A stretch of 63,056 nt of DNA, counting the filler, from Sphacelaria rigidula (Eukaryota), in NCBI GenBank assembly GCA_964200075.2. It is 6 parts of 6 records of this genome, joined end to end, with 100 filler letters (N's around TTAATTAATTAA, not from the genome) between each part and the next. Parts side by side here need not be neighbours in the genome. Positions count along the whole stretch, not along the records: positions 52,633 to 63,056 come from CAXNAA020006514.1; 5 more parts are not named here. One strand, 5' to 3'. The translations under genes and the position numbers were made by a program. Shown in pieces: positions 23,125-63,056 of this stretch; the first letter of the stretch is position 1, and each line of letters opens with the position of its first letter. The notes below the pieces were generated by a model that saw nothing but the letters and a program-made list of their open reading frames with translations, made no database searches and was not told the DNA's origin.

Positions 23125-23318
23125 AGAGTGATGCTACGGTAGGGGTGCAGAAATACTTTCTGAGGTTAGAATTGTTAGGAACCCTTTTTCCCATGCAAAA
23201 CACGACCTATGGAAGTATGTGAAAGTACTCCAGGATTACTNNNNNNNNNNATCGTTAGGAGCCCCTGAACTAGACATAATTTCGCGAAAAACGTGCACCC
23301 CTACCGTAGCATTGCTCT
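23125..23318. mobile_element. Short MITE with 25-bp terminal inverted repeats
   Basis: agagtgatgctacggtaggggtgca (23125-23149) versus tgcacccctaccgtagcattgctct (23294-23318), 23/25 complementary. Contains a 10-N gap. Confidence 0.75.
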
Positions 23319-23366
23319 AAAATCAGTCGAACAGCCCATGGTTTACTCCGGGAGCACCTTTTTTAA

Positions 23367-26300
23367 ACCTAGCATAACACAGCCCGGACATGGACAAGGA
23401 CTAGAAAAGCTAGCCATCCGTTTTCATTAACGAACCATAACACAGCCCAGACATAAATGGAATAGAGAAGCTAACCCTCCTTTTGATTGGACCTAGTAAT
23501 AAACAGCCAGGACATTGACATGAAAAATAAAAGCTGACCCTCTTTTCTGTTTATCCTACCATAACACAGCCCCGACATAGCCACATGACATAGAGAAGCT
23601 GACCCTTCCTTTTATTTAACCTACAATAACACAGCCCGGGCATAGACATGAAATGAAGAAGCTAACCCTTCTATTCATGCAACCTACTACAACACAGCCC
23701 CGACAAAGACATGAAATAGAGAAGCTAACCCTCACTTTTCTTTAACCTACTATAACACAGCCCGGATACAGACATGAAAAAAAAAAGCTATCCCTCATTT
23801 ATAGATAATCTATCAGAACACAGTCCGGATAAAGACATGAAATGGAAAAGCTAACCCTCTGTCTTCTTTGACCAGCCATGACGAAGCGCAGACATGAACA
23901 TGGAATGAACAAGCTAACCCTCCTGTTCATTGCACCTACCATAACACAGTCCAGACATGAACAGAGAACACACGAGCTAACCCTCCTTTTCATATACCCT
24001 ACCATGACACAGCCCGGATGCAGACATGGAAGAAAGAAGCTAACTCTTCTTCCTATATCACATACCATAACACTGCCCGGACAAAGACATGACATGAAAA
24101 GCCTAACCCTCCCATCCACATAGAATACGGCAGCCAATCCTCCTCTTCATATAACCTATCATAACACAGTCCGGATGCAGACATGGAATGGAGAAGCTAA
24201 CCCTCTCTTACCCTTGATCAGCCATGACGAAGCGCAGACATGAATATGGAATGAACAAGCTGACCCTCATGTTTATTGCACCTACCATAACACAGTCCAG
24301 ACATGGAGATAGCACACAAGAGCTAACCCTCCTTTTCATATAGCGTACAATCACGAAGCCCGGATGCAGACAGGAACTAGAGCAGCTAACTCTTCTCCCT
24401 ATATCACATACCATCACACTGCCCGGACAAAAACATGAAATGAGAAACCTCATGCTCACATTCAGGAAAAATACAGCAGCCAACCCTCCCCTTCATATAA
24501 CCCATCATAACACAGTCCGGATGCAGACATGGAATGGAAAAGCTCACCTTATCTTTCCTTTAACCAGCCATGACGAAGCGCAGACATGAACATGAAATGA
24601 ACAAGCTAACCCTCCTGTTTATATAACCTACCATAACACAGTCCAGACATGGAGATAGAACACACGAGCTATCCTTCCTTGTCATTTACCCTACCATAAT
24701 ACAGCCCGGATGCAGACATGGGATAAAGAAGCTCACTCTTCTTCATATTTCACATACCATAACACTGCCCGGACAAAGACATGAAATGTAAAACCTCATC
24801 CTCACATTCCCATAGAATACGGAAGCCAACCCCCCTCTTCATATAACCTATCATAACACAGTCCGGATGCAGACATGAAATGGAAAAGCTAACCCTCTCT
24901 CTTCTTTGACCAGCCATGACGAAGCGCAGACATGAACATGGAATGAACAAGCTAACCCTCCTGTTCATTGCACCTACCATGACACAGTCCAGACGTCAAG
25001 ACAGAACACACGAGCTATCCCTCCCTTTCATATACCCTACCATCACGAAGCAGGGACACAGACATGGAAGAAAGAAGCTAACTCTTCTTCCTATATCACA
25101 TACCATAACACTGCCCAGACGGAGACATGAAATGAAAAGCCTAATCCTCACATTCACCAATATTGCGGTAGCCAACCCTCCTCTTCATATAACCTATCAT
25201 AACACAGTCCGGATGCAGACATGAAATGGAGAAGCTAACCCTCTCTTACCCTTGATCAGCCATGACGAAGCGCAGACATGAACATGGAATGAACAAGCTG
25301 ACCCTCCTGTTCATTGCACCTACCATAACACAGTCCAGACATGGAGATAGAACACAAGAGCTAACCCTCCTTTTCATATAGCGTACAATCACGAAGCCCG
25401 GATGCAGACAGGAACTAGAGCAGCTAACTCTTCTCCCTATATCACATACCATCACACTGCCCGGACAAAGACATGAAATGAGAAACCTCATGCTCACATT
25501 CAGGAAAAATACAGCAGCCAACCCTCCCCTTCATATAACCCATCATAACACAGTCCGGATGCAGACATGGAATGGAAAAGCTCACCTTATCTTTTCTTTG
25601 ACCAGCCATGACGAAGCGCAGACATGAACATGAAATGAACAAGCTAACCCTCCTGTTTATATAACCTACCATAACACAGTCCAGACATGGAGAGAGAACA
25701 CACGAGCTATCCTTCCTTGTCATTTACCCTACCATAACACAGCCCGGATGCAGACATGGGATAAAGAAGCTCACTCTTCTTCATATATCACATACCATAA
25801 CACTACCCGGACAAAGACATGAAATGGAAAACCTCATCCTCACATTCCCATAGAATACAGCACCCAACCCCCCTCTTCATATAACCTATCATAACACAGT
25901 CCGGATGCAGATATGAAATGGAAAAGCTAACCCTCTCTCTTCTTCGACTAGCCATGACGAAGCGCAGACATGTGCATGGAATGAACAAGCTAACCCTCCT
26001 GCTTCTTTCACCTACCATAACACAGTCCGGACATCAACATAGAATACACGAGCTATCCCTCCTTATCATATACCCTACTGTAACACAGCCCGGATGCAGA
26101 CATGGGATAAAGAAGCTCACTCTTCTTCATATATCACATACCATAACACTGCCCGGACAAAGACATGAAATGTAAAACCTCATCCTCACATTCCCATAGA
26201 ATACGGCAGCCAACCCCCCTCTTCATATAACCTATCATAACACAGTCCGGATGCAGACATGAAATGGAGAAGCTTACCCTCTGTCTTCTTCGACCAGCCA

Positions 26301-29300
26301 TGACGAAGCGCAGACATGAACATGGAATGAACAAGCTAACCCTCCTGTTCATTGCACCTACCATGAAAAAGCCCAGACATCGAGACAGTACACACGAGCT
26401 CACCCTCCTTTTCGTATACCCTACCATCACGAACCAGGAGCACAGACATGGAAGAAAGAAGCTAACTCTTCTCCCTATATCACATACTATAACACTGCCC
26501 AGACGGAGACATGAAATGAAAAACCTAATCCCCCCATCCACAAATAATGCGGCAGACAACCCTCCTCTTCATATAACCTATCATAACACAGTCCGGATGC
26601 AGACATGAAATGGAGAAGCTAACCCTCTGTCTTCTTTGACCAGCCATGACGAAGCGCATACATGAACATGGAATGAACACGCTAACCCTCCTGTCCATAT
26701 AACCTACCATGACACAGTCCAGACATCAAGACAGAACACACGAGCTATCCCTATTCTTCGTTTACTCTAGCATCACGAAGCAGGAGCACAGACATGGAAG
26801 AATGAAGCTAACTCTTCTTCCTATATCACATACCATCACACTGCCTAGACAAAGACATGAAATGTAAAACCTCATCCTCACATTCAGATAAAGAACAGCA
26901 GCCAACCCTCCTCTTCATATAACCTTTCATAGCACAGTCCGGATAAAGACATGAAATAGAGAAGCTCACCTTGTATTTTCTTTGACCAGCCATGACGAAG
27001 CGTAGACATGAACATGGGATGAACAAGCTAACCCTCCTGTTCAGATAACGTACCATAACACAGTCCAGACATCAAGACAGAACACACGAGCTCACCCTCC
27101 TTGTCATATACCCTACCATAACACAACCCGGATGCAGACATGGGATGAAGAAGCTCACTCTTCTTCCTATATCACATACCATAACACTACCCGGACAAAG
27201 ACATGAAATGTAAAACCTAATCCTCACATTCCCATAGAATACCGCCGTCAACCCCCCTCTTCATATAACCTATCATAGCACAGTCCGGATACAGACATGA
27301 AATAGAGAAGCTCACCTTATCTCTTCTTTGACCAGCTATGACGAAGCGCAAGAATGAACATGGAATGAACAAGCTAACCCTCCTGTTCAGATAACCTACC
27401 ATAACACAGTCCAGACATGAACAGAGAACACACGAGCTCACCCTCCTTGTCATATACCCCACCATAACACAGCCCGGATGCAGACATGGGATAAAGAAGC
27501 TCACTCTTCTTATCATATCACGTAACAAAACACTACCCGGACAAAGACATGACATGTAAAACCTCATCCTCACATTCCCATAGAATACAGCAGTCAACCC
27601 CCCTCTTCATATAACCTATCATAACACAGTCCGGATAAAGACATGAAATGGAGAAGCTAACCCTCTCTCTTTTTCGACCAGCTATGACGAAGCGCAAGAA
27701 TGAACATGGAATGAACAAGCTAACCCTCCTGTTCATATAACCTACCATAACACAGTCCAGACATGAACAGAGAACAGACGAGCTCACCCTTCTTGTCATA
27801 TACCCTACCATAACACAGCCCGGATGCAGACATGGGATGAAGAAGCTCACTCTTCTTATCATATCACGTACCAAAACACTACCCGGACAAAGACATGACA
27901 TGTAAAACCTCATCCTCACATTCCCATAGAATACAGCAGTCAACCCCCCTCTTCATATAACCTTTCATAACACAGTCCGGATAAAGACATGAAATGGAGA
28001 AGCTAACCCTCTCTCTTCTTCGACCAGCCATGACGAAGCGCAGACATGAACATGGAATGAACAAGCTAACCCTCCCGTTCCTTTTACCTACCATGACACA
28101 GTCCAAACATCAAGACAGAACACACGAGCTCACCCTCCTTGTCATATACCCTACCGTAACACAGCCCGGATGCAGACATGGAAAAGAGAAGCTAACTCTT
28201 CTTCCAATATTACACACAATAACACTACCCGGACAAAGACATGAAATGTAAAACCTAATCCTCACATAAACGTAGAATACGGCAGCCAACGCCCCTCTTC
28301 ATATAACCTATCATAACATAGTCCGGATGCAGACATGAAATGGAGAAGCTTACCCTCTCTCTTCTTTGACCAGCCATGACGAAGGGCAGACATGAACATG
28401 GAATGAACAAGCTAACCCTCCTGTTCATTACACCTACCATGACACAGTCCAGACATCAAGACAGAACACACGAGCTATCCCTCTTTTTCGTATACTCTAC
28501 CATCACGGAGCAGGAGCACAGACATGGAAGAATGAAGCTAACTCTTCTTCCTATATCACATACAATCACACTGCCCGGACAAAGACATGAAATGAGAAAC
28601 CTCATTTTCACATTCAGATAAAAAACAGCAGCCAACCCTCCTCTTCATATAACCTTTCATAGCACAGTCCGGATAAAGACATGAAATAGAGAAGCTCACC
28701 TTGTATTTTCTTTGACAAGCCATGACGGAGCGCAGACATGAACATGGGATGAACAAGCTAACCCTCCTGTTCAGGTAACCTACCATAACACAGTCCAGAC
28801 ATGAACAGAGAACACACGAGCTCACCCTCCTTGTCATATACCCTACCATAACACAGCCCGAGTGCAGACATGGGATGAAGAAGCTCACTCTTCTTCCTAT
28901 ATCACATACCATAACACTACCCGGACAAAAACATGAAATGTAAAACCTAATCCTCACATTCCCATAGAATACAGCCGTCAACCCCCCTCTTCAAATAACC
29001 TATCATAGCACAGTCCGGATAAAGACATGAAATGGAGAAGCTCACCTTATCTTTTGTTTGACCAGCTATGACGAAGCGCAGAAATGAACATGGAATGAAC
29101 AAGCTAACCCTCCTGTTCCTTTCACCTACCATAACACAGTCCAGACATGAACAGAGAACACACGAGCTCACCCTCCTTGTCATATACCCTACCATAACAC
29201 GGCCCGGATGCAGACATGGGATAAAGAAGCTCACTCTTTTTCCTATATCACATACCGTCACACTGCCCGGACAAAGACATGAAAAAAGAAACCTCATCCT

Positions 29301-31484
29301 CACATTCAGAAAAGAAACAGCAGCCAACCCTCCTCTTCATATAACCTTTCATAGCACAGTCCGGATAAAGACATGAAATAGAGAAGCTCATCTTACATTT
29401 TCTCTGACCAGCCATGACGAAGCGTAGACATGAACATGGGATGAACAAGCTAACCCTCCTGTTCATATAACCTACCATAACACAGTCCAGACATCAAGAC
29501 AGAACACACGAGCTCACCCTTCTTGTCATATACCCTACCATAACACAGCCCGGATGCAGACATGGGATAAAGAAGCTAACTCTTCTTATCATATCACAAA
29601 CCATAACAATACCAGGACAAAGACATGAAATGTAAAACCTAATCCTCACATTCCCATATAATACAGCAGTCAACCCCCCTCTTCATATGACCTATCATAA
29701 CACAGTCCGGATGCAGACATGAGATGGAAAAGCTCACCCTTTTTTCTTTTGACCAGCTATGACGAAGTGTAGACATGAACATGAAATGAACAAGCCAACC
29801 CTCCTGTTCATATAACCTACTATAACACAGTCTTCTTCCTATATCACATACGATCACACTGCCCGGACAAAGACATGAAATGTAAAACCTCATCCTCACA
29901 TTCAGATAAAAAACAGCAGCCAACCCTCCTCTTCATATAACCTTTCATAACACAGTCCGGATAAAGACGTGAAATGGAGAAGCTCACCTTGTATTTTGTT
30001 TGACCAGCTATGACGAAGCACAGAAATGAACATGGAATGAACAAGCTAACCCTCCTGTTCAGATAACCTACCATGACACAGTCCAGACATCAAGACAGAA
30101 CACACGAGCTCACCCTCCTTGTCATATACCCTACCATAACACAGCCCGGATGCAGACATGGGATGAAGAAGCTCACTCTTTCTCCTATATCACATACCAT
30201 CACACTGCCCGGACGAAGACGTGAAAAAAGAAACCTCATCCTCACATTCAGATAAAAAACAGCAGCCAACCCTCCTCTTCATATAACCTTTCATAACACA
30301 GTCCGGATGAGGACATGAAATAAAGAAGCTGACCTTACATTTTCTCTGACCAGCCATGACGAAGCGTAGACATGAACATGGGATGAACAAGCTAACCCTC
30401 CTGTTCATATAACCTACCATGACACAGTCCAGACATGAACAGAGAACACACGAGCTCACCCTTGTTGTCATATACCCTACCATAACACAGCCCAGACACA
30501 GACATGGGATAAAGAAGCTCACTCTTCTTATCATATCACATACCAAAACACTACCCGGACAAAGACATGAAATGCAAAACCTAATCCTCACATTCCCATA
30601 GAATACAGCCGTCAACCCCCCTCTTCATATAACCTACCATAATACAGTCCGGATGCAGACATGAAATGGAAAAGCTAACCCTCTCTCTTCTTTGACCAGC
30701 CATGACGAAGCGTAGAAATGAACATGGAATGAACAAGCTAACCCTCCTGTTCATATAACCTACCATAACACAGTCCAGACATGAACAGAGAACACACGAG
30801 CTCACCCTCCTTGTCATATACCCTACCATAACACAGCCCGGATGCAGACATGGGATGAAGCAGCTACCTCTTCTTTCTATATCACATTATATAACACTAC
30901 CCGGACAAAGACATGAAATGCAAAACCTAATCCTCACATTCCCATAGAATACAGCAGTCAACCCCCCTCTTCATACAACCTATCATAGCACAGTCCGGAT
31001 GCAGACATGAAATGGAGAAGCTCACCTTATCTTTTGTTTGACCAGCTATGACGAAGCGCAGAAATGAACATGGGATGAACAAGCTAACCCTCCTGTTCAT
31101 ATAACCTACCATAACACAGTCCAGACATGAACAGAGAACACACGAGCTCACCCTCCTTGTCATATACCCTACCATAACACGGCCCCGATGCAGACATGGG
31201 ATAAAGAAGCTCACTCTTCTTACCATATCACATACCATACCAATACCCAGACAAAGACATGAAATGTAGAACCTAATCCTCACATTCCCATAGAATACAG
31301 CAGTCAACCCCCCTCTACATTTAACCTATCATAACACAGTCCGGATAAAGACATGAGATGGAGAAGCTCACCTTATCTTTTGTTTGACCAGCTATGACGA
31401 AGCGCAGAAATGAACATGGGATGAACAAGCTAACCCTCCTGTTCATATAACCTACCATAACACAGTCCAGACATGAACAGAGAA
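23367..31484. repeat. Satellite array: 7 diverged 63-bp monomers, then about 22 higher-order units of 346 bp (5 x 63 + 31); runs off the contig end
   Basis: The anchor cagtccggat occurs at 23821 + 346n for n = 0-17 (to 29703), then one 250-bp deleted unit, then 29953, 30299, 30645, 30991, 31337. Monomer starts in one unit: 24846, 24909, 24972, 25035, 25098; half-monomer at 25161. Confidence 0.97.
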
Positions 31485-31584
31485 NNNNNNNNNNNNNNNN
31501 NNNNNNNNNNNNNNNNNNNNNNNNNNNNTTAATTAATTAANNNNNNNNNNNNNNNNNNNNNNNNNNNNNNNNNNNNNNNNNNNN
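31485..31584. other. Artificial contig linker
   Basis: N44-TTAATTAATTAA-N44. Confidence 0.98.
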
Positions 31585-31715
31585 GTCGGTATCGGTAGGG
31601 TATGAGATGTCCCAAATACCGGTACCGGGTACCTACCTTACCTACGGTGCCTGTGCAATCTTGTCAAAGACACACGAAAGTATACTGACAACAACTGGTA
31701 GCAATCACGGCGCTG

Positions 31716-32270
31716 CTACTTTTTCACTGTACGGGGAGTATCGAAGGCTGACGAGTCCACCGACGAGGTGACTACTCGGTACGACTCCATCATTTCCCGA
31801 CACTGGGGAACGTCTCTATGATGCTTCCAAACTCCCAGAGCTGGTAGATGACCTTTCAACAAAAGGTGGTACTGGAAATTGGTCGGTGACGCGGTGCCAA
31901 CTCCGCGCTTGTGATCGTCAATGCCTTCGACCATGTAGGGACCCAGCTTGACAGCATCGAGGAAACCTTCGAGGGCTGGGACTGGTGACGGTTGCACCTA
32001 AAACAAAATGTCGTCACAGGCTGGAAGATCGGGGACAGACAGGTTGAGGGTGGGAGATACTTTTTTGACCTTCCGACAAGAACGATGATAGGACATATAT
32101 CGCCGTTTTTACTGACGCAATAAATGACTGGACAACTGTGCACGGACCGTACATGGACCGCTCCACGGGCTGGTTAGTTTGGGATTTGGACCATCAGTCG
32201 CCGTGTAGGGACGGTAGAGCAGGACTTGCTCTCCCCTTTTGAATTGGGGCAATCGTCGATGCCAATAGAA
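31716..32270 (-). mobile_element. Ty3/gypsy pol 3' remnant: integrase GPY/F region plus chromodomain-like tail
   Basis: FKRGEQVLLYRP...PKLTSPWSGPCTV (GPY/F motif) is followed after frameshifts by YMVEGIDDHK...QYHLLLKG...GVW...QCREMMESYR. Confidence 0.75.
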
Positions 32271-33385: not shown

Positions 33386-34516
33386 ACAACTACACTTGGA
33401 CTGTTGGCTAAGGTCGAGCTGACGCATGGACATGTGAGCACCCCACGCACTCACACACAAACATACAAACACACGAGAGACCAAGCGCACCGAATGGCAG
33501 CTGTGCCACCAGCCGCCCCTACCCCAGCACCAGCAGCAGATGGTGGCTAGCAAACGTGTTTGTGTTTCGATGTCGGAGGGGGACCATGGTTGATCAAGCC
33601 AGCTGGACGTGATGCATACGTGAAACAGCAGAAAAGCCTAAACCTTGAACGAGTCATGCTCGCGCCCCGAATGACGCATGCCTGTGGTTTGCATCACACC
33701 GCATACTGCTGTCTTTTTATTTATGCAGGAATAGGCCGGTCTGATTTTTCTGGTATATTCCTGTCCTGCGCAGATACGAGTTCACACCACTAAAGCCTCG
33801 AACACAACTCCGGCTATGTCACGCTCTTCGGCTGTCAATGGCGGTCAGTATGATATCATGTGTGCGACTATTGGGTAGGTATTGCGAAAGGCATTTGCTG
33901 ATGACACAATTTTGGGTGATGAGCGTGAACTAGCCTATATACCGGCTCAAGTTGGGGTATTTAAAGAGTATGTAAGAGGAATGTTATCGGTAAATGCCCT
34001 TCCGAACCATACCGGAGTGTTCAGAACAAGGCTCGATACCCTGCCGGACCATACTGTAGTGTTCGATACATATTCCTATACGGTAATCAATACTGTGACA
34101 ACCACAACTCTCCTCTTTCGCCTCCTGCATTCCCTAAAGAACACATCCTCGGAAGTTTTGATTTTCACATGACACGTTTCACCACTCTCTTGACTTGTTT
34201 CTGTACGAGCTGGGCCGGCCAACATACCTTACTTTTTTTTTTTTAAGATAGATGGCGCGGGGCTGAATTTGAGGAGTTAGGCCACTTCTTTTATGTTACA
34301 AACGAGTTTGTTGAAAATCGCCTTTTCGGCCGTTTTCCGTCATTTTTCGGCCGAAAAGAGGGTTTAGCGGATGTTGACACCCTGGAATGATTTGCTGTAC
34401 TCGTTGAGACCGTTCCATGGCACCTGTCATCACATCGGGTCTGTGCCGCCGTCCACCACATTGAGGACCTGGAAATACTATTATAGTTTCCGCTCGACAT
34501 TACAAAAAAAATCATG

Positions 34517-34870: not shown

Positions 34871-35708
34871 AATCCCAACTTGGGCGGTACTAAATAAAAA
34901 AAAAGGGAAGAAACGGCCAGTTTTTTATAACTGGACTGCTGTTGAAAAATGCGAGTTTGGCAAGAAAAAAAGAGTGTGACCTGCGGAAAACGTAAACGTG
35001 CCCTGAAACGGTCTCGACGAGTGTACTGCGCCATTCCAAGGTGTCAGCATCCGCCTAATTCTCTTTTCGGGCGAGGACGACGGAGAAGGACCAACAAGAT
35101 GTTTTTGACATATAAGGGGTGGCTTTAGGCCGTTCCTTATGACAGGCAAGAAAAAAAATCTGGAAAAACACCTTTATGGAGCTTATGCGCCGTTTTCACC
35201 CTAAAGAGAGCTAGACGGATTTCTACACCTGGGAATGCCTTACTTAACTCGTTTAGACGATTTCGGCACCCCTGTGCGTTTTTCCGGTGGCACAGGGCCC
35301 AGAGATCTGGCCAAAAAATATGAAATGCAACAGTTTTAGACCAATCAAGGCCGTTCAACGCGCGAAAATGCGGAGGCGGGGACGTTCCACTAATCACATG
35401 AGAGCTACGAGTATGAAATTCACATGAGCTGCAAAAATGTTTTGATTGGCCCACACGTTGCGCCGCTACGACACAGACAGTTGCGACGATCAATCGCTGA
35501 GGGTACAGCAGTCCGTGCTCGCTCAGTTTGTTTGCTCCAACCTGCAGGCACCCGCTTTGCATGTCTTCCCCGATCACAGCACCCGACTACAACTGAAGTA
35601 CCGAAGAAGGCACAATGGAAAGCTGCACGGCCATCACGTCATTTTTTCATCGTGTATAGATGGCACTTTGGTCCCACCCCAACTTTCTACACGTCGTACA
35701 GATCAGCT

Positions 35709-37430: not shown

Positions 37431-38189
37431 GGCCAAAAAAAAGACTGCGATCACCGCAAAAATGCACAGGTGTGCTGGAACAGTCCCAACAAGTAGAGCA
37501 AGGCATTCCAAGGTGTAAAGACCCGCCAAGCGCTCTTTTAGGGCGTAAAATGACGTGGAAGCTCCAACGACGCATTTTTTCGAGATTTTTATTTTTGTCT
37601 GCCGTAAGGAGCGGCCTTAGTCGCTGAATTTTTGACAAATTTATCGTCAAGACGCGAAGTATAGTGCGGGATGTGAAGAAGAAAAGAAAATAATAAGAAG
37701 TTAGGGCGATTCGAAATTTTAGCAAAAACTAGAAAAATGCAATAACTCCGCGACAAAGCAAAAAATGACCGTATGCCGCGACTCGAATCTTCTACTTGCG
37801 CGCGAAGATCCCGGTAAATTTTTGGGCTAAGAGCTCGTAAAATTAAGCCGCGCGTGGAACTTTTGGTGTAACACCGCTGCACCTCGGTGGTCCAACCGAT
37901 AGAGGAGCCTCCAATTACACAGGTCACGAATTCTCTCCCCCACACGACCATCTTTTCCCCCGTGAGCTGGCAGATATTTTTCTTTCCAACGGTGAGAAAG
38001 GACGATCACCATCGGGGAGTGGATCGAGGAGAAGCGTTGCAGCCCAGTCCGAGTTGGATATTTGTGCTTGTGCTCGTGATATGTGATGGTCGGCTCGGAG
38101 GTCCTCTCCCATGATGGAGCTGCTGACGATCTTGATGCAATCTCGCAGCATTCCCAGTGCACTTTTGACAGTGAGTATCGAAGTTGTTA

Positions 38190-43149: not shown

Positions 43150-43362
43150 GTAATCAGTACGTTCGGGGCCGAACAATCTTAGCAGGATGCAGCTCACCCT
43201 TCATCCGACTCGCCGAACACATCACGGCGCTTCGCGCTGGGTGATCGATCGCAAGCCTGGTCCGGCGAAAACCCGGCGTCCTCCGTCCCGGCTTTGTAGG
43301 GGTGCGAGGTCAATGGTCATGTGACTATGGCATGCAAGATGATGAGTACACCCCCACTTTTT
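43150..43362 (-). repeat. Fragment homologous to the decayed ORF at 52635-52712
   Basis: 'ctccgtcccggc.ttgtaggg.tgcgaggtcaatgg...tgactatggcatgca.gat.atgagtacacc' at both 43281 and 52635. Confidence 0.75.
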
Positions 43363-47361: not shown

Positions 47362-48848
47362 CTCAACGCCTACATTGTACCACACCCATAATATGATGTG
47401 GTGGGAATCAAGATTGGTCGTCACGTCGGAACGGTGTCGGTGTCAGCCAAGCTAGCCGTGCGGGGCTAGTCAGTCGTTCCAGGCACTTGTTGATGCTCCT
47501 CGTCGAGTGTAGAAATTTGTCAGGGTTTTGGCTGCTGTACCCCCGGTTTGGAGTGCTGTAGGTGACGGTCATCCGAGTCTGAGGATTCGTCGTCTTGGAA
47601 AATGAAAACTCGGCCGATGCAAGATGGATTTGTCGTTGTTCCTACCCCGTGGGTTGTGAAGCACTAGGCGCACGCGCCAGGAAGATTCGAGGACGTAGAG
47701 CATTTGTTGAGACGTAATTAGACGTCGTGGTGCGATTTGAAAGTAGGCGGTTATCCAGGCGGTATCAACACATTGCATTGGAGGTATGGTATTCTCTGTT
47801 GTCGGGCTGTGGCCCCAGTGGGCTGGGGGCGTACGTTCGCGCAATAGAAATGCAAGTATCTACCACCACAACAACCCGAAATGTGAGTAGAGGCGGGCCC
47901 AAGTGTGTATACTGTAGTTGCAGTAATGCCAAATGACACTGTTCACTAGCGTCTGTATGGAGTCGCTGTTGCGTGCTGTACAAGTACATCGCTGGAGGGA
48001 GATCTACGCGTCGGGATTGAACCATGTATTCCGTGTTTTTGCTCATGTTGGACCAACTAGTTAAAAGGTAGAGCTGAGGACTTACACGCTACGATTGGCG
48101 TGCGCTGTGGCCTTGTGTTTCTTCGCTGCGGAAATGAATATAGTGTCTGACGAACGGGTACAAGCTGAGCAGGCGAATGTCGAGGAAAGAGTATAATCTG
48201 ATTCGGGTCCTAAGGGGGACATCTGCATGTGATGTACCACCTGTACTGCATGCCAGAATTTCACACTTGGGATCGCTTGGAAGCATACCGAACTCGCCAC
48301 GGCACCACACGGCCGGAACATGTGTCGTCTGTGGTGGGTTTTCGTATCAGTAAGAAATACTGAACGGGCTAATAGTTGTGAGTACCCGGTTTCAATTTCT
48401 CCTCCGAAAAAAATGTCTAGCGAGATACTAAAAATAACTGCGACAAACGAGTCGAAAGTGCGAAAGGAGCTGGTACATGACACTGCGTCAGCCTCAGGAG
48501 GTGTCGATGCCGTTTCAACTTCCCCCCGTATCAAAGAAGATACTCGTGGGAACAGATCTTTTTCAGTAAGTATACATGAGGCGCATCCTGGTAAAAACAT
48601 ACTTGATCTTCGTGTCGGGTCATCTGATTCAGGTCTTCGGAGGGATGACAGCTGTCTCTGGTACTGCCATGCATGGTCAGCGTGCGCAGCGCACGTTTTT
48701 GCTCAAATCGGCGCTTTCATTTGAGTATCGCCACCGCATACCTTGCCTGGGACACCATAGGCAGCCCCTTGCCCGAGGGCTCTTGGTGTGCTCCGAGTTG
48801 GGTCGGCGTCAACCATGATGACATGAAAACCTCGCGCACACCCGCATC

Positions 48849-52632: not shown

Positions 52633-55118
52633 TGCTCCGTCCCGGCATTGTAGGGATGCGAGGTCAATGGACTTTATGACTATGGCATGCATGATCATGA
52701 GTACACCACTCCTTGCGTTCTCCACGGTCGGAAAAAGCAAGTCCGGATCATCACTCGATACATTCAAACGGCAAAGACTGCTCAGCAATGCTAACAGTGC
52801 CGGCGGTGTATCATCCGTAAGATTGATTCATGGGTCGAATATTCCTCGATATGTCAGCTGCGTATTTCTGGTCTCTACCCCCCGATACGTTCCTCAGTTC
52901 TTGTGCCCTTTCGATGTCCATCCTGACGATGGACCCAGCCGCCATGACCATGGCCCATCTCTCCTCCACCGAACCGGCAGCTGTCACCGGCTGGAGTGCG
53001 GGTTCAACCGGCTGACCAATCTCGATCTGGGCGGTGAGGCGGGAGACGGAACGCTCCAGTTCTCGTACCCTGGCACGCATGTTGCGAAGTTCAACGTCAG
53101 CCGCCATAGCTACCTCGAACACCACCACGGGAGGAACGAATTAGATTAACTTGCGCCGTCCATCGCACGCAGTCCGCTCGACCCCGCTTATCCTCTCAAG
53201 CTTGGCGTCGACTGTGCCGGCCACCGCCACCACGTCGAAAATTTCCACCGCTTGCTCCCTGGTGCGCTTGTCTAGAACGGCCCAGGCGTTTGCTGAGGTT
53301 CTGGCTTCGGTCAGCCAGGATTGAACATCCTCCAGGCCCACGACGCGCCCCGCCTCAACGGCCGCCATTACTTTATGGTGTGCTTCTGCAGCAAGGTCCC
53401 GCTCGGCAGGGGTAAGGGGGAATTAAACCAACAATCTCGGGTGTGCAGCAAAGCGAAGGGAGAGACCTTGCCTTCCGTCCATCACTCGTAACCTTGTGTC
53501 GGTCAATGGAGCGCCGCAAACCATCATGTCGGCTGCATAAGCAACCTGAAATCGGTTGATACTTTTGCAGAAGCGTAGCTGGGCGAACACCGGCACCATC
53601 CGCACACGACGCCAGAAGTAGCCAAGCCTCTGGAAATCGCGCCGCGCCAAGATGACGCCAGACATTGCCTTCGCCGGGTCCGGGTCGATGGCAGGCGAAG
53701 CACAGTCGCGATACCGGGTCGTGTGTCCGTTCGAAAGAGGAGCACGTGTTGCATGCGTTGTCGACGACGGCGAACTGCATGTCGCACACATCGCGACTGC
53801 AAACCCGCTTACGTCCTCTAGGCTCCCTTATACCAGTGACCAGGTTAGACCCTGCCGGCGCAGAATGCTCTCTCCTGTAGCCATCACGATTCCCGGGGGG
53901 ACCTTGAAAACTACTGCGTCGCGTCGACATCCTCCCTCTTTCACTGCGCGCACGATGTTCACCTCGATCAGTGTCGGGGGGTGGTGCCTGGCGGTCGGGA
54001 TGCCTCATTACTTCGCCGACAGCCCCGTGCGTTGGCGCCGGCGCTACCTGCTCTTGTTCCGAACCTGCCAAAGATGAGCTGCTGGCACCTTTAACCCGGC
54101 CCGGGTCGACCCCAGGGGTGGCAGTTTCTGTAGTTTTTTTCTTTTTCCGCTTCGATTTTGACGCCGACGCGCCTGCAGGGGTTGGTTGCGAGGTGCATAG
54201 TGAGCCCAGTCGCTTGTTATGGTGTCCCGACGGCGCAAAACATCCTCCCGGTGACCCTCGAGGATGACCTCGTCGTGCGTTGTATGGGGAAGGGGTCGGT
54301 GCTTCCTCGGGAGGGTGTCTTACCAGCAGCTGATCTTCCTTTACCCCGTTACTGTGCTGTAGCGCAGCCCTATGTTGTTCATGCCACGCTCCCCATGCGC
54401 TGTCAACCTCCGAGTGATTCGTCACGGTACTCTTCCGTCTCAATGTACGTACGTGAGCGTGCGGGGATGTGCCCCTGCTGGCGTTGGGCGGGGTACGTCT
54501 TTTCTTCGCCTTGGCTGACGTAGTTGAATTCTGCACTTCCACGAGTCTAGTGTCGGCAGCTATCCCGCTTTTGCGGGGGGTGTTGCCCACTTCGTTGAGA
54601 GGTACTGTCGGCGGATTTCATGGCGATACCTCCCATGCCTTTTTCGACGCCGAACCAATCGAGATTTCACGAGTTGCGCCTCCCCCGCCCGATCGACATT
54701 TAAACTTGTAATCTGCGCTCGGACGGTCGTTGCATCCCTCCAACCCTTGGTTTTCTACAGATGCGCCATCAGCGGACGCGATGGACGCTTCCTAGGGACT
54801 GAACAGTACAGTCGCCTTATATTTTCCGTGCGAAAAGGGGCTCAGCGAATTTGGCGCTGCGCCCCCTTCGCCGGCGTGACCCCCGACGATATCCCTCAAA
54901 TTTTCCACCGGAGCTGTACGTTCGGAGTGCGTCACTGGAAAACTGCTTTCAACCGCGAATGTGGCATGCATCGCGGGATGGCGGCGGGAGTGGTGCAGGC
55001 GCTTCATTACCTGCTCGGAGGAGATGGGACAACGATAGATAGGCGCAACGTGTCGGTCGTGCGGCCTTTTTGATTTTTCAATTGATTTAGTCGGGGGTTC
55101 GTGTAAAAGAATCCCCAA
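52633..55118 (-). pseudogene. Decayed large ORF (low-complexity N-terminus, Cys/His zinc-finger cluster, coiled coil), probably transposon-borne
   Basis: ORFs 54792-55118 and 53373-54590 are in one frame, separated by two stops. 53141-53368 and 52811-53128 share a second frame. Motifs CSRDVC, CNTC, CFAC...FPEAW...LCSRH; heptads LRNMRARVRELERSVSRL. A related fragment lies at 43150-43362. Confidence 0.5.
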
Positions 55119-57474
55119 ATGTAGGCAATCATCGACGGGAACAAGGGGAAAGCAGTCGGGTGCGCGGGGTCTTCGGCACTTCTACTTCGCGCGGTATCTG
55201 TGCGTCACGGGTGTTGTGGTGCTCTCACCTCGAAATCGATTGCGGTTCACTATTTCACGTTTGGTCTGCTCCGGCCGGCGTCTCAGAAGTGCTCCAGACG
55301 TTGTACCCCAACTGTGAATCTAACCCTAACCCTAACCCTACGTCAATACTTTTGATCCTAGATGTCTTCAATCGTGCGGCTGTCATGCTGTGCCGTCCAA
55401 CGATAACGGAATTTTGTTTGCCGCGCCATCATATCGCATGGTTGCTGCATGCGATCGTCGTTCTGTTGTCCAACTTTACAACACGAACTTTACGTCCACA
55501 GACACTCGGATGATCTCGCTCCACGTAGAGGGTCATTGGAACCCGGGTGCAGGTTCCCAGCATGCAATCGTTGCGCAAAAAAGGGCAGTAGGTGGGAGTA
55601 ATACCTCCCTTCATGGAGTATCTCACCCACAGAATTACACATAACCCACGGCCGTATGTCGCACGTCGTGTATCTTGATGGCTTGGGTATGACCATCACA
55701 TACGCACTACAGTTGTACATGCTGTTTCTTCTTGCAGTCAGCGCTGTTCATACCCGAGCATTGACCCTTTTGGAACCCTTCCCTCCTGTTCCCTGGCCAA
55801 ACGCCTTATTATGAGAAGCCCTGACCAAGAGGAAAACATGGAAACAAAAAAGGCCGACGGCAACCATTTTTTAAATGGAAGACCGAAGAAGAATGTCCTC
55901 CCTGAAGAGGTCGGGTGAGGTCTATCCAATCATACCACGCAACGGATGAAGTGTGTCCAATTGTACCCATCGACAATAATCAGCAAAACCACCATGAAAC
56001 ATTCCATTCAAAAAACAGCAATGGGTTCCAGGGTCCGATCAGGCACATCGGTATATCAGCATTTATTTGAAGATAAGGGAAGCACCATTTTGACGGACTG
56101 CAGCATCAGGTGGCGAGTTTGTCGAGCCACACCGTACATACAGCACAGTATGGATGAACCCAGCGAAATCCCGTTACCAAATGTGGGAGGCACAGTGGGT
56201 TGTGCGAGCGGTACATGGCGGGCGTAATCGCAGGCGTCCGCACAGGCGATATGCATGCACACGGGAGGGCGCCAACGGGCTCCGCCTACCGTAATCAGGC
56301 CAGGTGAAAAACACTACCGTCAGTAAATACAGTAGGTTACAGTATTGACTTGCGGCGACACTCCGTGCAAGATAAATATGAGCATGTCGTGGAAAGTCGG
56401 CCACGAGAGTAGACGGCACAAGACAATAGCGGTAGCCCGCGTCATGAATCTCATGCAGCATGAAGTATGTCTATGCAACGGTCGGGAGCGATCAACCCGC
56501 GGTAAAGATGTGGTGGGGCAACTGTGCCTTTCGCTACTCCGTTGTGTAATATTCAATCCACAGTATGATGTTGTCGGCACGTGCTTGGCAGAGCGCAGTT
56601 CTGCGCACGCCTCGCGTTTTACAGAGATAATTTCAAAATACGATACAAACATAACACGAAGCGGTGAGGCATCACCCCTGGGGCGACGGCATTTGGCAGA
56701 CTCAGCTTACACCACAGTGACGGTGCATAGCTGCAGGACACATGGCGTCTGCGTTGCCTTTACGGATTTTTTCAAACGGCGGAATGGTGCTGTCGGAACG
56801 TGCATGAGCGCGATGTTGTGCATGACGTGAGTCGGCAGTCGAGATTACCCCCAAACTGCTGTAAATACACCCAGTACCGTACAGGGCAGTATCGCAGCAC
56901 CCTCGGCGGCACGGAAAGGTGACTACCTCGAATTGTATTACACTGCCAGTTCATAAATATGGCGAATGTGCCACCGGCGTTGCCCTTGTTGCTATGACGC
57001 TGCAAAGAGTATAAACTGCAGCGGCAAGGGCGTGCAGGTCAGGCGGGAAGCATGCTTCCCAGAGGCTTGCCGCGCACTGTGGCCGGGGAAGGGGCTCATG
57101 AGTGTAGAAAAGAAACGTCGACGGTTCCTTGACCTCGCCCCAATAAGAAAATAGAAAACCTTCTCTTGTTCCACTTGTCACTCGCACGGGTCTGAAAAAT
57201 ACGCGTCGGGCGAATATTGTTGCATCTAAGCTGTGAACCACCAACCATATCTTGCTCAAAAACCGTCAATTTCAAATGATCAATTTGCCATTGTGAGTTC
57301 CAAAAGGGTTAAACTCTTTAGACTGTACAACACTCTGTGCTGCATTGCACTTCACTACACGCAGTCGTCCTGTTCTGTGCTGCACTGAGGTTCACGGGAC
57401 AGTGCTGCACGGGCTTGTCATGTACTGGGGTGAACAGCTTATACCACAGGAAGGCTGGCTGGATTGTTGTAAAT

Positions 57475-59120
57475 CAGGGTTGCACATGGGACATCGATAA
57501 TCGATATGATTTCGATAAACATCGGCGATACGCAGTGTCGGTATCGGAGCGTAGAAAATCGATATATGCCATACGTATCAATATCGATTATGAATATCGA
57601 ATATCGATACGCTCGATACTGTCTCCCCCTCTGTCCAAAAAATACTGTCCAAAAAATACAATCCAACCATCCATCCATCCATCCATCCATCCTCAATCAA
57701 CCTTTAATTTATTTATTATTTTACAAATTATATATATGTATATATATATATTTGACCCCTTTTTCGTCAAATCAGCTCAATCTCTCGAAACCGTCGTCAC
57801 AGGAAATGTAGGGGGGATGGTATTTCCCCAACGGTAGACCCCCAGTTGATTCAGCCTCACCCCTCGCCACTCTACAAGGTCACCTGCACACACCACTTTT
57901 CCACACGAGCAGTCACCGCAGTAACCAACTTGCTTCTGTGTGCTTGGCGTCACCGCAGTGTGTATAAGTTACACTTGCGAGTATAGCTGTAGAGAGCGGT
58001 TGCACGGTGTGCAAATGGATGCAGTATCTATTCATAGGATAGGATGCGACATAGTAACCGCTGGTGCCTCGTGGGTTTGGTGATTCAGCGGGGGTGTTTA
58101 ACAGCGGCAACATACGGGTGGCGTGGCGGAGTAAATATGAGGTCACGATCACTGCAAAGCTGCAGATAACAGTAGGAAACAGTTGTCCTTCGGGGTATGA
58201 GGAGATGGTAGTGTCGCTTCGCATTTCCTTCATGTTTGACGAGTATTGTATATTTTTTCCCCTCCATTCACTACCCTGGACATTCTAATTGTTGCAAGCT
58301 TAATGGTTTTTTCTTCTTGGTTGGTGACATCCAAATATATAGATATATACATTGTTTGGCATCCAAAAATTAAAATTTGACGCATGCTGCCGACGTCTCC
58401 TGTTATTGGTATTAACAGTGAAAAACGTTGAAGAAAAAGAGCGCGCATTTGAGTTTATGCATGTCCGAGGTTTGACACGTTTTCTTCTCTGATGAATGTG
58501 CAGAGTCGAGGTATGCGCTCATTCAATCGAAACACACAGAAGTATGGCCGTAGAAATGAAAAAAGTATAACCAATACCACACCCGGCCCGCTGTGATCAA
58601 GTACCTCTTGCATGATGGCGAAACACATTCATTAGACAGCCGCATCACCGCATGACGCCGCTGCTATGATGTCAATTTGCACACTACCCGCTGCTGTACA
58701 TCATGTGTCCACTGCTGTCCACTGGAAACTACCGTAGGTTTCACAAGATACCACACCCTCAGGAGCGAATTTCAAAGCTCGAAAACTTTCTCTCGACGTG
58801 ATGGTTACAACGCCGCCCAGTTCAGCCCTGGCATCGCTTCTGGTGAGGAGTATGTGAGCTTTGAAAATCTGTCTAGGGGATGTGGTATCTTATGCGACCT
58901 ACAATAATAGTGAGAGAAGGTGTCAGTGTGACAGTGTGCTGCTCGTCTTGTACACTGCGGCCATACCAAAACAGTCGTATCCTATCGAATATCGATACAG
59001 TACTCGATAGATATCGTGTCATTTTCGGAATATCGACGAAAATATCGGTATCGGCGGTTGTGAGTCGATGTCCTAAGAATATCGTATCGAACTTTATTGT
59101 CGGTCCGATACGCAATCCTG
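57475..59120. mobile_element. Non-autonomous TIR element with ATCGATA-rich subterminal regions (hAT-like termini)
   Basis: CAGGGTTGC at 57475 and GCAATCCTG ending at 59120. Dense tatcg/cgata motifs at 57490-57620 and 58975-59110. Confidence 0.65.
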
Positions 59121-59962
59121 AATCAGATCAGATCAATCAGGAAGGGGGCTTTCTGCTGCACCCATGTGCTGGTGTGGAGCGAATTTTAAAATTTTAAAAC
59201 TTTAGCCAACTCGTTTATTCTGTGACATGGATGAATTTCAGTGGATCCTTTTGCAATAGAAATGTTGCTTTGTCTACATGGTAAAATATTCCTCTGCGTC
59301 TCTGCCGGTGGTGTAACGCGAGCGCCGTGCTCTCCTATAATACAGTGTTATTCCTTTTCAATATCATGGAGGCGGTACTTTTGGAGATTAGACGCCCCAA
59401 CACCGTACACCAGGCGTCTGATGATACTGAAACTTGACGTGTGTGTGGACTGAAGCCGCAGGTAGGTGTTGACGCAGCAGTTTCGGTGAACCAGGGTGTT
59501 TTGTGCGCTGCGTGGCTTGAANNNNNNNNNNGTGGAAAACAAGAACACTTTCTGATGACAGTTCTAGAGGGTAACGGTATGAAATCCGCGCGGAGACAGG
59601 AGTAGATCTTGCCATCCGGCTCCGCGCCCATAGGGTAACTTGTGCATTGATATGCACAACTTGATTAAAATATAGGACCCATACTTTTTTTCCACTCATC
59701 ACCTGAATAACGCCTGCCAATTCAAAGAATCATTGATGTGAATTGATGTGCATAGCCAATCAGCGCGTGTCGAGCATGAGGAGCATGGCCGAAAGCACCA
59801 CAGCGTCCTCGGGATGATGGCTAAGCCAATGCACGTAGTGAGACGAGATAGAAACAGCCTTTGTTCATCGGGTGCCGCGGCCCGCCGAAAATCTTCATGT
59901 ACCCAACATGAAATGTCCAGCTCTTGCCCTATTTTTTTTCTGCTGCTGCTTGGTCAGCAGCA

Positions 59963-62570
59963 GGTGGTGGCTCCTGGCCGCGGTCGGCCGCCCGAGAGAA
60001 GAAATCGACCGGGCTCAGCGAAACCCGGCAAAGAGAGCGCTGACGATAAACGGCGAAGGTTAGCTGAACAACAGGCCTCTCGCAGGGTCCACGCACGCTT
60101 CTGGGGCAAAACTCCTGCCACTGAAAGTTCTAACCCTGGTGCCAGTGGAGGATCATCAAGATCTACGCAGGGTAGTGGCAGCTCTGTTGCCAGCGGAGGA
60201 TCATCGGCAACTCACCAGGATGCTGAACGCTTCTGTTCCACCGCAACTCCACGGCAAGGTGATGACAGCTTTCGTGCAAGCGGAGGATCACGGGGGACTG
60301 GGCAAGATGGTGGCAGCTCTGGCGCCGGCTGAGGATCAGCAGGAACACGTGGAGGCAGTGGAAGCTCTCGTGCGAGCGGAGGGTCAGGGGGCACTCGTCA
60401 GAAGGATGGTAACTTTGGTGCGAGCGAAGGAATTTTCGAATCTCAGCAGAGTGAGTCGGCGAGCGCTGTCGATGGTCATGGCACAGGCACGGCAGATGGC
60501 GGGGACTCTCAGGTCGATCAGGTCTGGACACAGGTAGAAGTAGACCATTAATCTTCGAACTGCTTGTGCGGGTACATGGTACAGTGCAAGGCATCCCTAG
60601 TTTCGCCGAATTGTAGGCAGCCGCTGGAACGCGTTTGCCGTTCTGCTGTGGTGTACTGTACTGACTGTGGTGGGCGATACAGAAATGCACAGTGATCTGA
60701 GTTAGATTGAAGCATACAAGATCATGAGTAGACCTTTCCTCCCTTGCTGCCGGGCATCACTCGCATTTGCTGTGATGTTCTTCAGCCGCAGTTGACTCCG
60801 CAACAACGGCGTGTGAAGGAGGTCCAGAGGAAAATTGCTGAAGCCAGCAGCTACCCGTACGATGATTTTTTTGTGAGACCGCGAAACCCTGTGCTCAACG
60901 CCCGAACGCGGGCGAGCGATTTCTATCTACGCCCCGTGTTCGTGTGGCGGCCTGAGCTGCAGTGTCTGAAAGTACAAGCGCAGTTCGGCGACAAGCTGCC
61001 TTGCCCCCGAGACAAGACAGCAAAGGATGTGACCAAGAAGGGATGGATCTCACACATATCCAGAGTGGGTTTAATGAGGGATGAGTGCTGCGACATGACG
61101 ACGTACTGGTACATATGTCGCACTTGTGAAGACGAAAACAAAAAGCGGGCCAAGGTGAGTTAGTTCACCCTTTTGGAACTCGCGAAAAACAGTACAAGCT
61201 CCCATATGCGAGCTTTTGTCGCCGGGAAAGCGTCATTCCAAGGATATCGTTAACGAGCTCTGGAAGGGTCTCAACGAGTACAGCAAATCATTCCAAGGTG
61301 TCAAGCCCCGCCTAACCCTCTTTGCGGGCGAAAAACGATGGAGAAGGATTAAAAATGCACTTTTTGAAAAGGTTTATTTCTTGATACATGAGATGTAGTC
61401 TAAATCGTCACTCGTCCATCAACGGGTGCATATTTTCGCCGTTAATTTCATCCACTTTTCCCTGGCTTGCACGAGCTCGCCAAGAACATTCTTCGTGTAA
61501 TCTCGCTGCAGTACCTTGAAGTTACTTTGCTAGACGCTCCCGTCGCCTGCGAGTGACAAGCCTTGTACGCGTCTATCATGAATACTACCCTCGTGCAGGA
61601 ACAGAAGAAGGTACCCGAATCATTCAGGACGTGGGACCCCGCGGTCTTGACCCAGCTTCCCATGTACGTGCAGGAGAGTTTTCCTTTCATCCTTACGAAG
61701 AAGTCAGCGGTGCACAAGGATATCGTTAACGACTTGCGTGACGACGTCGTTAGAGGGGGGAAGAGTTATAGAGCGTGTTCAGACGGGATCGGGCAAATGC
61801 ATTTAGTGCGGTACCACGGCCAAGAGATGAAGTACTACAGCAAGCTGTTGTGGGATAGGAAAATCCCCTCGGTGGGTATACCGGTGAAGGAGGAAATATT
61901 CAGCGAGTTTGGAAACCGAAGGTATTACAATGGTTTCTCTCCGTTTGCGCACTACCTGAGGCCTTTGTGGACTGAAGTCCAGGAGAGGCGACCAGTGGCC
62001 AAGCTCGACAAATATGTCAAAGGAGGGAAGGGCGAGGTGCGTTGACAGAATAATCACGACTCTGCTTTAACATTGGGTAATCTTGGTCTCCATGTACAAG
62101 TAGAATGTTTTTGCTCGTGTTCTCAGATTGTTATTGACTACTTCGTTGCGATGTCGATTTCTTCACGTATCGATATTTCCTCCTGACCCCACGCACTTGC
62201 AGGAGGGTTGGACTCGTGAATACTTCTTGCAGCGACGCCAACAACAGATTGATGGGACTGTGCTGAGCATGGACGGCTCATACAAATTCGTCAAATTCGT
62301 TCGTGTACGGGATGGAAAAGGTGCTGACGCACGGCCTATCTACTGTGTAATGACCGTTTTCAACGAGTTCGAGCAGATGGCTCATGCTCTGCGATCAGTC
62401 AGCGCGGCGATGATAGACCGAAGGTCATTCTGAGGCTATGCCACATTGATGGAATCATGTGATCTGAACTCGTCATGCCTGCAGCGCTGTATGGTACCCC
62501 GGTATGTACATCGTTTCGATTGTGTAGTGCCCGCCTCACCTGTTTTCTCTGTTTTTTTCCAGTGAAGGGG

Positions 62571-62605
<35 letters not shown>

Positions 62606-63014
62606 TGTTTTACAGGTGGTCATGCAGAAGGGCTTGGTTGGCGCATCAGTAAGAGAGATCAAGGAAGACCTGAAGCTGCTGCTGAGGGCTCGCTACAGAG
62701 ACAGCGGATTCAAGCTCCCTCGGGTGGTGTACACGGATTTGTGTTGTGACGACCGACAGCTGCTTCGCGAGATTCTCAACGAACTTCGGGACAAAGGGTG
62801 GGAGTATCGCCTCGCAGACCCCGAGCCAACGGGACCGGAACAGCCGCTGTACAAGATTCCGGATGATGTTGACGGTGTTTGCGTTCGGGCGAGCCAGCAG
62901 AAAACTGTCTTGGAAGGTTTGTGCCAAAAACTTGATAGAGAGATCGCTGCAAACGGCCACGTCATGGGCCTGGACATCGAGTGGGGGGGCGTACTCATTT
63001 GTTGCTTGCCTTAG
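59963..63014 (+). mobile_element. Intron-containing putative DDE transposase gene (Cys cluster, DDE-like core, start of a 3'-5' exonuclease domain); disabled and truncated by the contig end
   Basis: Exons about 59963-60512 (basic plus G/S repeats, in-frame TGA at 60330), 60786-61154 (VFVWRPE...LPCP...GW...YICRTC), 61599-62036 (SFRTWDPAVLTQLP...FPFILTKKSAV), 62203-62376 (VLSMDGSYK...TVFNEFEQ) and 62616-about 62990 (RYRDSG..PRVVYTDLCCDD...VMGLDIEW). Confidence 0.7.
60141..60467 (+). repeat. 48-bp coding minisatellite (16-aa G/S-rich unit)
   Basis: 'gc.agcggagg.tca' variants start at 60141, 60189, 60276, 60324, 60372 and 60420. Confidence 0.75.
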
Positions 63015-63056
63015 TCGTTTGACCATTGACCACGCATCCCTTTCGAGACGGAGCAC

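Follow-up and report, generated by a model that had tools for sequence, protein, structure and literature searches.

A decayed DNA-transposon copy in the brown alga Sphacelaria rigidula, probably of the exonuclease-bearing lineage of the Dada superfamily

The plus strand at the 3' end of a 63,056-nt stretch of Sphacelaria rigidula DNA (the whole stretch analyzed, hereafter the window, in which all positions are counted; it is eukaryotic, brown-algal sequence with runs of N inside) carries a spliced, partial gene that we read, with a probability of about 0.85, as a decayed copy, cut off at its 3' side, of a Dada-superfamily transposon belonging to the lineage whose transposase bears an exonuclease. 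An earlier interpretation made from the sequence alone (the sequence-only reading) had proposed a spliced DDE-type transposase of the RNase H fold with a WRN-type exonuclease inside it, and had singled out the combination as the best candidate for a novel system. The same architecture was described for Dada elements thirteen years earlier, in a brown alga as well as in a mushroom (Kojima and Jurka 2013, PMC3706591). The architecture inferred from the sequence was therefore right and the claim of novelty was wrong: the system is not new.

All the motifs quoted in the sequence-only reading were recovered on the plus strand, in open frames that connect through phase-0 introns into one spliced reading frame. 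Three of these introns are bounded by GT..AG (60534/60785, 61155/61598 and 62037/62202) and the fourth by AT..AG (62377/62615). The four exons that follow the putative N-terminal exon are collinear on P0032, a chytrid (Blyttiomyces) protein of 1722 residues, where they align to residues 353-437, 459-577, 598-656 and 658-780; the window therefore corresponds to about the second quarter of the complete protein, and some 940 residues are missing downstream. As judged from these alignments, the homology of the exons is far above chance, beginning with exon 1 (36% identity, E 2.7e-12), opposite which P0032 carries CPNC...CHTC. The junction between exons 3 and 4 was set by P0159 and P0032, which pass from NEFEQ or NEYDQ directly into VVFQKGL or IVFQKAL, exon 3 of the window terminating in NEFEQ. 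The corresponding junction of the database gene model P0001 (AAMIDRR followed by EIKEDL) was rejected, since the relatives run from NEFEQ straight into VV(F/M)QKGL. In the resulting frame the first catalytic Asp is encoded at 62272-62274 (LSMDGSYK), the second at 62736-62738 (VVYTDLCC), and the Asp and Glu of ExoI at 62973-62975 and 62979-62981. ExoI (GLDIEW) thus stands, as had been proposed, downstream of the second Asp and in a Dada-like place, at a distance of 79 codons (YTD, 62736, to DIEW, 62973) rather than the suggested 75 or so residues; ExoII and ExoIII lie beyond the homology present in the window.

Exon 2 is 100% identical to P0001, annotated as "unnamed protein product, partial [Sphacelaria rigidula]", and matches the Pfam domain of unknown function DUF6729 (PF20499) at E 1.7e-6 with 28.2 bits, above the gathering cut-off of 27, which bears out a resemblance proposed in the sequence-only reading. 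The P0001 gene model scores 25.3 bits, just below the cut-off, and relatives reach 95.6 bits. Exon 2 alone yields 161 matches at E ≤ 1e-3 in a library of 1.8 billion proteins, and its closest long relatives are the chytrid proteins P0023 (42% identity) and P0032 (37%). Further downstream, exon 3 is 78% identical to P0159 and exon 4 is 83% identical to P0158, a protein that runs on into a full PF01612 exonuclease domain. PF01612 itself is not reached by any window piece or by P0001 in the Pfam scan because, among the exonuclease motifs, ExoI alone is present. The segment upstream of exon 1 is low in complexity and rich in Gly and Ser, with an AT-hook-like PGRGRPP close to its start; it is probably the N-terminal exon, an assignment made by frame reading in a segment to which no relative aligns. 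Basic motifs of the GRP type also open the relatives P0111, P0087, P0140, P0148 and P0032. Short DUF6729-like proteins, 44% identical to exon 2, occur separately in metagenomes (cluster P0007; 161-164 residues, 40 members on up to 72 contigs), recurring on many contigs of up to about 10 kb.

The design that the window copy shows in part is seen whole in its relatives. We scanned 30 long relatives against Pfam (E ≤ 0.001) and found PF20499 and PF01612 together in 14 of them, about 190 residues apart, PF01612 alone in one, and DUF6729 alone in the other 15, many of which are truncated proteins; PF01612 is also present in P0158 and P0159. The full order in the relatives is DUF6729, Asp, Asp, DEDDy exonuclease, DxxH and Glu, and the consensus of 52 aligned sequences reads, in order, Cys pairs, FPxxLT, GDHSFK, FxTDN, VGFDxEW, KxGxxxxxD, YAAxDA, DxFH and RGTxSxEG. 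In a 15-row view of this alignment the first Asp is kept in 14/14 of the rows spanning its column, the second in 15/15 and the ExoI D-x-E in 12/15, while DxFH or DxWH appears in 10/15 and GTN..E in 6/15, the remaining rows being truncated proteins. The window copy keeps both catalytic Asp residues and the ExoI D-x-E. The downstream motifs that had been predicted are likewise found in relatives: ExoII in P0158, ExoII and ExoIII (YAAxDA) in P0032, and then DxFH and RGTNSLEGG, with the DEDDy residues kept in most relatives and Cys/His-rich tails in P0032 and P0179. A search for intact copies had also been suggested; tblastn with P0001 returned none in the window beyond this one, and it is the relatives in the protein library that carry the whole design. 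A metagenome scan with P0159 gave 154 pattern matches, none of which was confirmed.

Two departures from this order were observed among the fungi. The full-length mushroom proteins P0179 (Mycena latifolia) and P0181 (Lentinula raphanica) retain the Asp, Asp, DxxH and Glu of the transposase core together with an insert of exonuclease size, but other residues stand at the acidic positions of ExoI, ExoII and ExoIII, so that the exonuclease looks to have been inactivated in some lineages. In P0172 (Apophysomyces ossiformis) some 55 residues separate the second Asp and DxFH, and the exonuclease is absent; the gene model may have skipped it, or the protein may be a natural form without exonuclease in a group of Mucorales whose other members bear one.

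To place the family core among known folds, we used an AlphaFold2 model of the relative P0091 (775 residues, built on a 52-row alignment; mean predicted local distance difference test score, pLDDT, 88.3). Foldseek with this model ranked the WRN exonuclease first (E 2e-14; template modeling score 0.87-0.90 on the target), followed by EXD2 and Nibbler. An independent structural search matched P0091 residues 257-463 to the mouse WRN exonuclease with Z 26.8 over 185 aligned residues (root-mean-square deviation, rmsd, 1.7; 32% identity), and the same search returned, at rank 17 among exonucleases, the IS256-family transposase ISCth4 (6xg8_A) with Z 15.3 over 264 aligned residues (rmsd 4.0; 9% sequence identity). 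The ISCth4 match covers the model range 48-775 and hence both sides of the exonuclease insert. By sequence, a family profile search reached WRN (E 4.7e-44) and EXD2 (1e-31) and matched no transposase; Pfam Transposase_mut and MULE gave no match in the window pieces or in the 30 relatives at the thresholds used. These models indicate that the family core has a DDE fold of the IS256/Mutator-like kind, from which a WRN-type DEDDy exonuclease loops out downstream of the second Asp. Together with the alignment of the relatives, they uphold the earlier proposals of a spliced DDE-type transposase of the C/DxxH group and of a WRN/EXD2-type exonuclease inserted in it.

The model of the window's own product, P0001 (pLDDT 84.1), shows around its two Asp residues the order strand-strand-strand-helix-strand-helix (beta1-3, alpha1, beta4, alpha2), with strands at 143-149, 171-176 and 182-188. 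Its residues 132-255 matched the Argonaute PIWI domain, retroviral integrase cores and the RNase-H-like domain of PRP8 at Z 5.6-6.0, and its DUF6729 part (residues 21-129) is helical, with weak helix-turn-helix or Myb-like matches at Z 5-7.

[quoted passage not shown] Its spacing of 68 residues between the first and second Asp in Dada-U6_DR (PMC3706591) compares with 75 in the window, across the homology-consistent junction, and 70 in P0091. The relatives come from Agaricomycetes (Amanita, Mycena, Lentinula), Mucorales, chytrids, Plasmodiophora and brown algae (Ectocarpus, Hapterophycus), and the brown algae and Agaricomycetes among them fit the range of Dada hosts. Mobile, multi-copy behavior is supported by a cluster of Ectocarpus proteins (P0020; four from E. 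siliculosus and six from Ectocarpus sp. 6, at least 90% identical and on different contigs), by a 2025 survey of Ectocarpus transposable elements that lists one DNA/Dada family with 15 copies, one of them intact (PMC12477816), and by a second version of the S. rigidula gene in public sequencing runs.

Several observations weigh against filing this locus as a Dada element. Membership rests on reported architecture, motif spacing, host range, fold and the text of the paper, the Dada consensuses having been compared through their published description and not through a curated consensus sequence. The nearest named Ectocarpus relative shares just 34% identity in exon 2. The first zinc-finger knuckle of exon 1 has one Cys instead of two (C-P-R-D, followed by C-R-T-C in the second), which leaves three of the four Cys positions of a CCCC finger. 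The best fold match of the P0001 model reaches Z 7.1, all its matches lying below Z 8 and under the level that the tool treats as meaningful, and ISCth4 is not among the 50 matches listed for it; these matches are weak because the model contains half a domain. A sequence search of the PDB with P0001 likewise gave nothing meaningful (best E 0.42). The ends of the element and its target duplication are undefined, the 3' part being missing and the window having a single copy. Finally, the elements described in 2013 lack terminal inverted repeats, and their insertion into U6, U1 or tRNA genes duplicates 6-7 bp of the target (PMC3706591). The whole window gave no Rfam match at the gathering score and no tRNA with ARAGORN, and Rfam at E ≤ 1 on 56000-61000 gave one chance-level match and no tRNA or snRNA fragment. 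Dada-1_ES, the Ectocarpus element, has no defined target in the naming of Table 1 of that paper (PMC3706591).

The first of these points leaves room for another superfamily of the C/DxxH group, such as one of the P or MuDR type or KolobokD with its DEDDh enzyme, that gained an exonuclease of its own and is merely Dada-like. Gains of this sort have recurred, KolobokD encoding a DEDDh exonuclease (PMC9587614), and the best structural match among transposases is an IS256-family enzyme, a prokaryotic relative of MuDR. The exonuclease of the present family is, however, a WRN-like DEDDy enzyme (YAAxDA) and not DEDDh or TREX-like, and it interrupts the core between the second Asp and DxxH, the position reported for Dada (PMC3706591). 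Furthermore, none of the 30 relatives matches the Pfam MULE, hAT, THAP or P-type families at E ≤ 0.001. We therefore hold an independent superfamily to be very improbable and retain the Dada assignment.

The condition of the gene was examined with contigs from four public sequencing runs, placed on 59540-63056. Three features of the window copy are disabling: an in-frame TGA at 60330-60332 in the N-terminal exon, a donor at 62377 that reads AT where GT is expected, and the end of homology to the relatives at 62984. Judging by its sequence, this copy is non-working, everything after ExoI being missing from the window, and it is no working example of the design. A close version from a genomic contig (P0158 and P0002; 83% identity) has EVPRVGSSQNPPAVIQ directly behind DIEW and then the remainder of the PF01612 domain; nothing like EVPRVGSSQNPPAVIQ occurs in the three frames after 62984 of the window. 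Word depth over the exons is about 30-60, as for single-copy DNA, and the same runs hold a second version at similar depth, the only other one at 90% likeness or more. At 60330 this second version has G and hence no stop codon, and one contig of run X3 reads G at 62377, which restores a GT donor. The two versions differ at 21/285 positions over 60235-60519, 32/340 over 60773-61112 and 15/219 over 61988-62206 (mostly intron). The presumed RNA runs X6 and X7 gave few collinear contigs of low depth and no splice joints, and are uninformative either way on expression and splicing.

Past 62984 the window is filled by a repeat unit of about 73 nt, with a word depth of about 7e6, contig joints that return 72-73 letters upstream, and loose ends at either side. 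One X1 contig is exact over 62696-62985 and then continues for 128 letters that are unlike the window and do not fit its tail, which counts against a real 3' cut: the truncation may be an assembly break at the repeat and not a genuine insertion. With one copy of the unit next to an N gap and another at the very end of the window, the assembly appears to break where this unit occurs. In the genome itself the element could, then, be whole and perhaps active, the scaffold having broken at a hyper-abundant repeat, and the uninterrupted exonuclease domain of P0158 would agree with this. The stop codon (TGA, 60330) and the mutated donor (AT, 62377) would remain, however, and at 62377 run X1 shows no letter other than that of the window, with 0 of a depth of 46.4 reading G. 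A complete element here is accordingly improbable in our view, and we keep to a decayed copy.

We also considered a domesticated host gene, that is, a Dada-derived transposase-exonuclease recruited by brown algae as a low-copy, intron-bearing and non-mobile gene. Several phase-0 introns, the single-copy-like depth with just one other version at 90% or more in the runs, a single copy in the 63-kb window, and the lack of a visible small-RNA target or terminal repeats would suit such a gene. Against it stand the in-frame TGA, the AT splice donor and the absence of sequence after ExoI. Moreover, the exons of the two versions have diverged no less than intron sequence, which argues against purifying selection. 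Introns and low copy number are features of Dada elements themselves (PMC3706591, PMC12477816), and the Ectocarpus relatives are multi-copy at 90% identity or more. Recruitment as a host gene thus appears most unlikely, and a decayed Dada copy remains the preferred reading of the locus.

Table 1. Features of the S. rigidula window, with positions counted along the whole stretch.
Feature	Positions	Strand	Basis or remark
Putative N-terminal exon	~59963-60533	+	frame reading; donor GT 60534
Exon 1, Cys cluster (zinc-finger region)	60786-61154	+	aligns to P0032 residues 353-437
LPCP	60996-61007	+	translation of window
ICRTC	61113-61127	+	translation of window
Intron 1, GT..AG	61155-61598	+	splice sites; holds high-copy dispersed repeat ~61164-61400
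Exon 2, C-terminal half of DUF6729 (SFRTWDPAVLTQLP, FPFILT)	61599-62036	+	PF20499 match
SFRTWDPAVLTQLP	61620-61661	+	translation of window
FPFILT	61680-61697	+	translation of window
Exon 3, RNase-H-like core strands 1-3 and first catalytic Asp	62203-62376	+	alignment, model
LSMDGSYK	62263-62286	+	translation of window
Intron with mutated donor, contains (GT)n run	62377-62615	+	starts AT not GT; acceptor AG 62614-62615
Exon 4, helix 1, strand 4, second Asp, linker and ExoI	62616-62984	+	alignment, model
VVYTDLCC	62724-62747	+	translation of window
VMGLDIEW	62961-62984	+	translation of window
~73-nt hyper-abundant repeat unit	62983-63056	.	read-word depth; fills window to its end
Open reading frame	62646-63056	-	no Pfam family at E ≤ 0.01
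Open reading frame	60163-60756	-	no Pfam family at E ≤ 0.01
Open reading frame	53373-54617	-	no Pfam family at E ≤ 0.01
Open reading frame	57322-57837	+	no Pfam family at E ≤ 0.01
Open reading frame	56336-56830	+	no Pfam family at E ≤ 0.01
Open reading frame	54528-55073	+	no Pfam family at E ≤ 0.01
Open reading frame	48082-48702	-	no Pfam family at E ≤ 0.01

The unit of about 73 nt, which starts with a G run, also occurs at 17261-17316, 22893-22966, 43298-43355 and 52652-52707 (minus strand); it is both dispersed and tandem in the sequencing runs, where single-copy DNA has a depth of about 30, and it has no Rfam match at E ≤ 10. The repeat within intron 1 (61164-61400) reaches a word depth of 6.9e4 and has further window copies at 34333-34417, 34985-35090 and 37475-37594. 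It shares with exon 2 an exact 18-letter string (61239-61256 and 61715-61732) that reads K-D-I-V-N in frame in both, through either chance or descent as a relic. Just upstream of the gene, a repeated stretch at 59540-59775 adjoins an N run (59522-59531) and shows a depth of 1.4e4 that falls to about 700; no other copy of it was found within the window. Elsewhere, 22000-32000 shows a strong strand asymmetry over about 8 kb (GC skew about -0.3, AT skew about +0.25), unlike the rest of the window. The seven opposite-strand and neighboring open reading frames that were scanned with Pfam are listed in Table 1.

By analogy with the families involved, and given the domain order, conserved residues and folds seen in the relatives, a mechanism can be proposed for an intact element. 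Such an element would encode one long, intron-split transposase with an AT-hook-like basic N-terminus and a Cys/His-rich tail, whose zinc finger and helical DUF6729 module may bind sub-terminal sites of the element. The IS256/Mutator-like core of the RNase H fold (Asp, Asp, DxxH, Glu) would nick the element ends and join the 3'-OH ends to a staggered target, in keeping with the 6-7 bp duplications reported for Dada. The WRN-type DEDDy exonuclease, predicted to be looped out with a small beta domain between the second Asp and DxxH, could then, as a built-in 3'-5' activity, trim 3' ends or flaps, whether these lie at the cleaved ends or at the donor site. A trimming role for the exonuclease in transposition was proposed by Kojima and Jurka (PMC3706591). 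Experiments on any Dada transposase were not found in the literature searched.

Taken together, these data assign a fragment that bore only the annotation "unnamed protein product" to a transposon superfamily already described. We consider it likely that four further statements hold jointly: that DUF6729 represents the DNA-binding module, made of zinc finger and helices, at the N-terminus of Dada transposases; that exonuclease-bearing Dada elements occur in chytrids, Mucorales, Agaricomycetes, Plasmodiophora and several brown algae, and hence more widely than in the two hosts of 2013; that the core is structurally IS256/Mutator-like; and that P0179 and P0181 have lost the acidic residues of the exonuclease with the domain kept. 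The modest additions to the published picture are the link between DUF6729 and Dada, for which a full-text literature search for DUF6729 found no paper, the broader set of hosts in which exonuclease-bearing members occur, and the likeness in fold between the core and an IS256-family transposase. DUF6729 would accordingly serve as a marker of the superfamily, and proteins of brown algae and early-diverging fungi that combine DUF6729 with PF01612 under the name "3'-5' exonuclease" are probably best read as Dada transposases rather than as host repair enzymes. The locus adds little to biology by itself, and an intact relative, not the broken window copy, suits the study of the role of the exonuclease in transposition.

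Compared with known systems, the exonuclease insert of the family resembles the PF01612 domains of WRN, EXD2 and Nibbler (Mut-7) in fold, profile match and DEDDy residues, and differs from them in being a loop inside a transposase core, where they form a helicase head or a free-standing enzyme; of this WRN-type domain the window itself carries the ExoI strand only. With ISCth4 (PDB 6xg8) of the IS256 family, and by extension with the eukaryotic MuDR/Mutator transposases, the family shares the fold of the catalytic core, as seen in the model of the relative P0091, and the (C/D)xxH motif. It also has a third acidic motif of the TN..E type, a pattern of IS256 and MuDR. ISCth4 shows no detectable sequence similarity to the present family, and the matched chain (401 residues) is without an exonuclease insert. 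KolobokD (Kojima and Bao 2022) is likewise a transposon of the C/DxxH group; its DnaQ-fold exonuclease is proposed to trim 3' ends during transposition, but this enzyme is DEDDh and TREX/ERI1-like, and the elements belong to the Kolobok superfamily, with TTAA duplications, and are reported from molluscs, arthropods and cnidarians (PMC9587614).

The closest counterparts are Dada-1_ES of E. siliculosus and Dada-1_LB and Dada-2_LB of Laccaria bicolor. The window copy differs from them in lacking everything after ExoI, in its disabling changes and in the C-x-x-D of its first knuckle, and its closest long relatives are chytrid proteins. It shares with them an intron-split single transposase gene and, through its relatives, an N-terminal zinc finger, a DDE core with DxxH and a WRN-like DEDDy exonuclease between the second Asp and DxxH (PMC3706591). 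Low copy number is also common to both, as are hosts among the brown algae and the Agaricales, here brown algae, Amanita, Mycena and Lentinula (PMC3706591).

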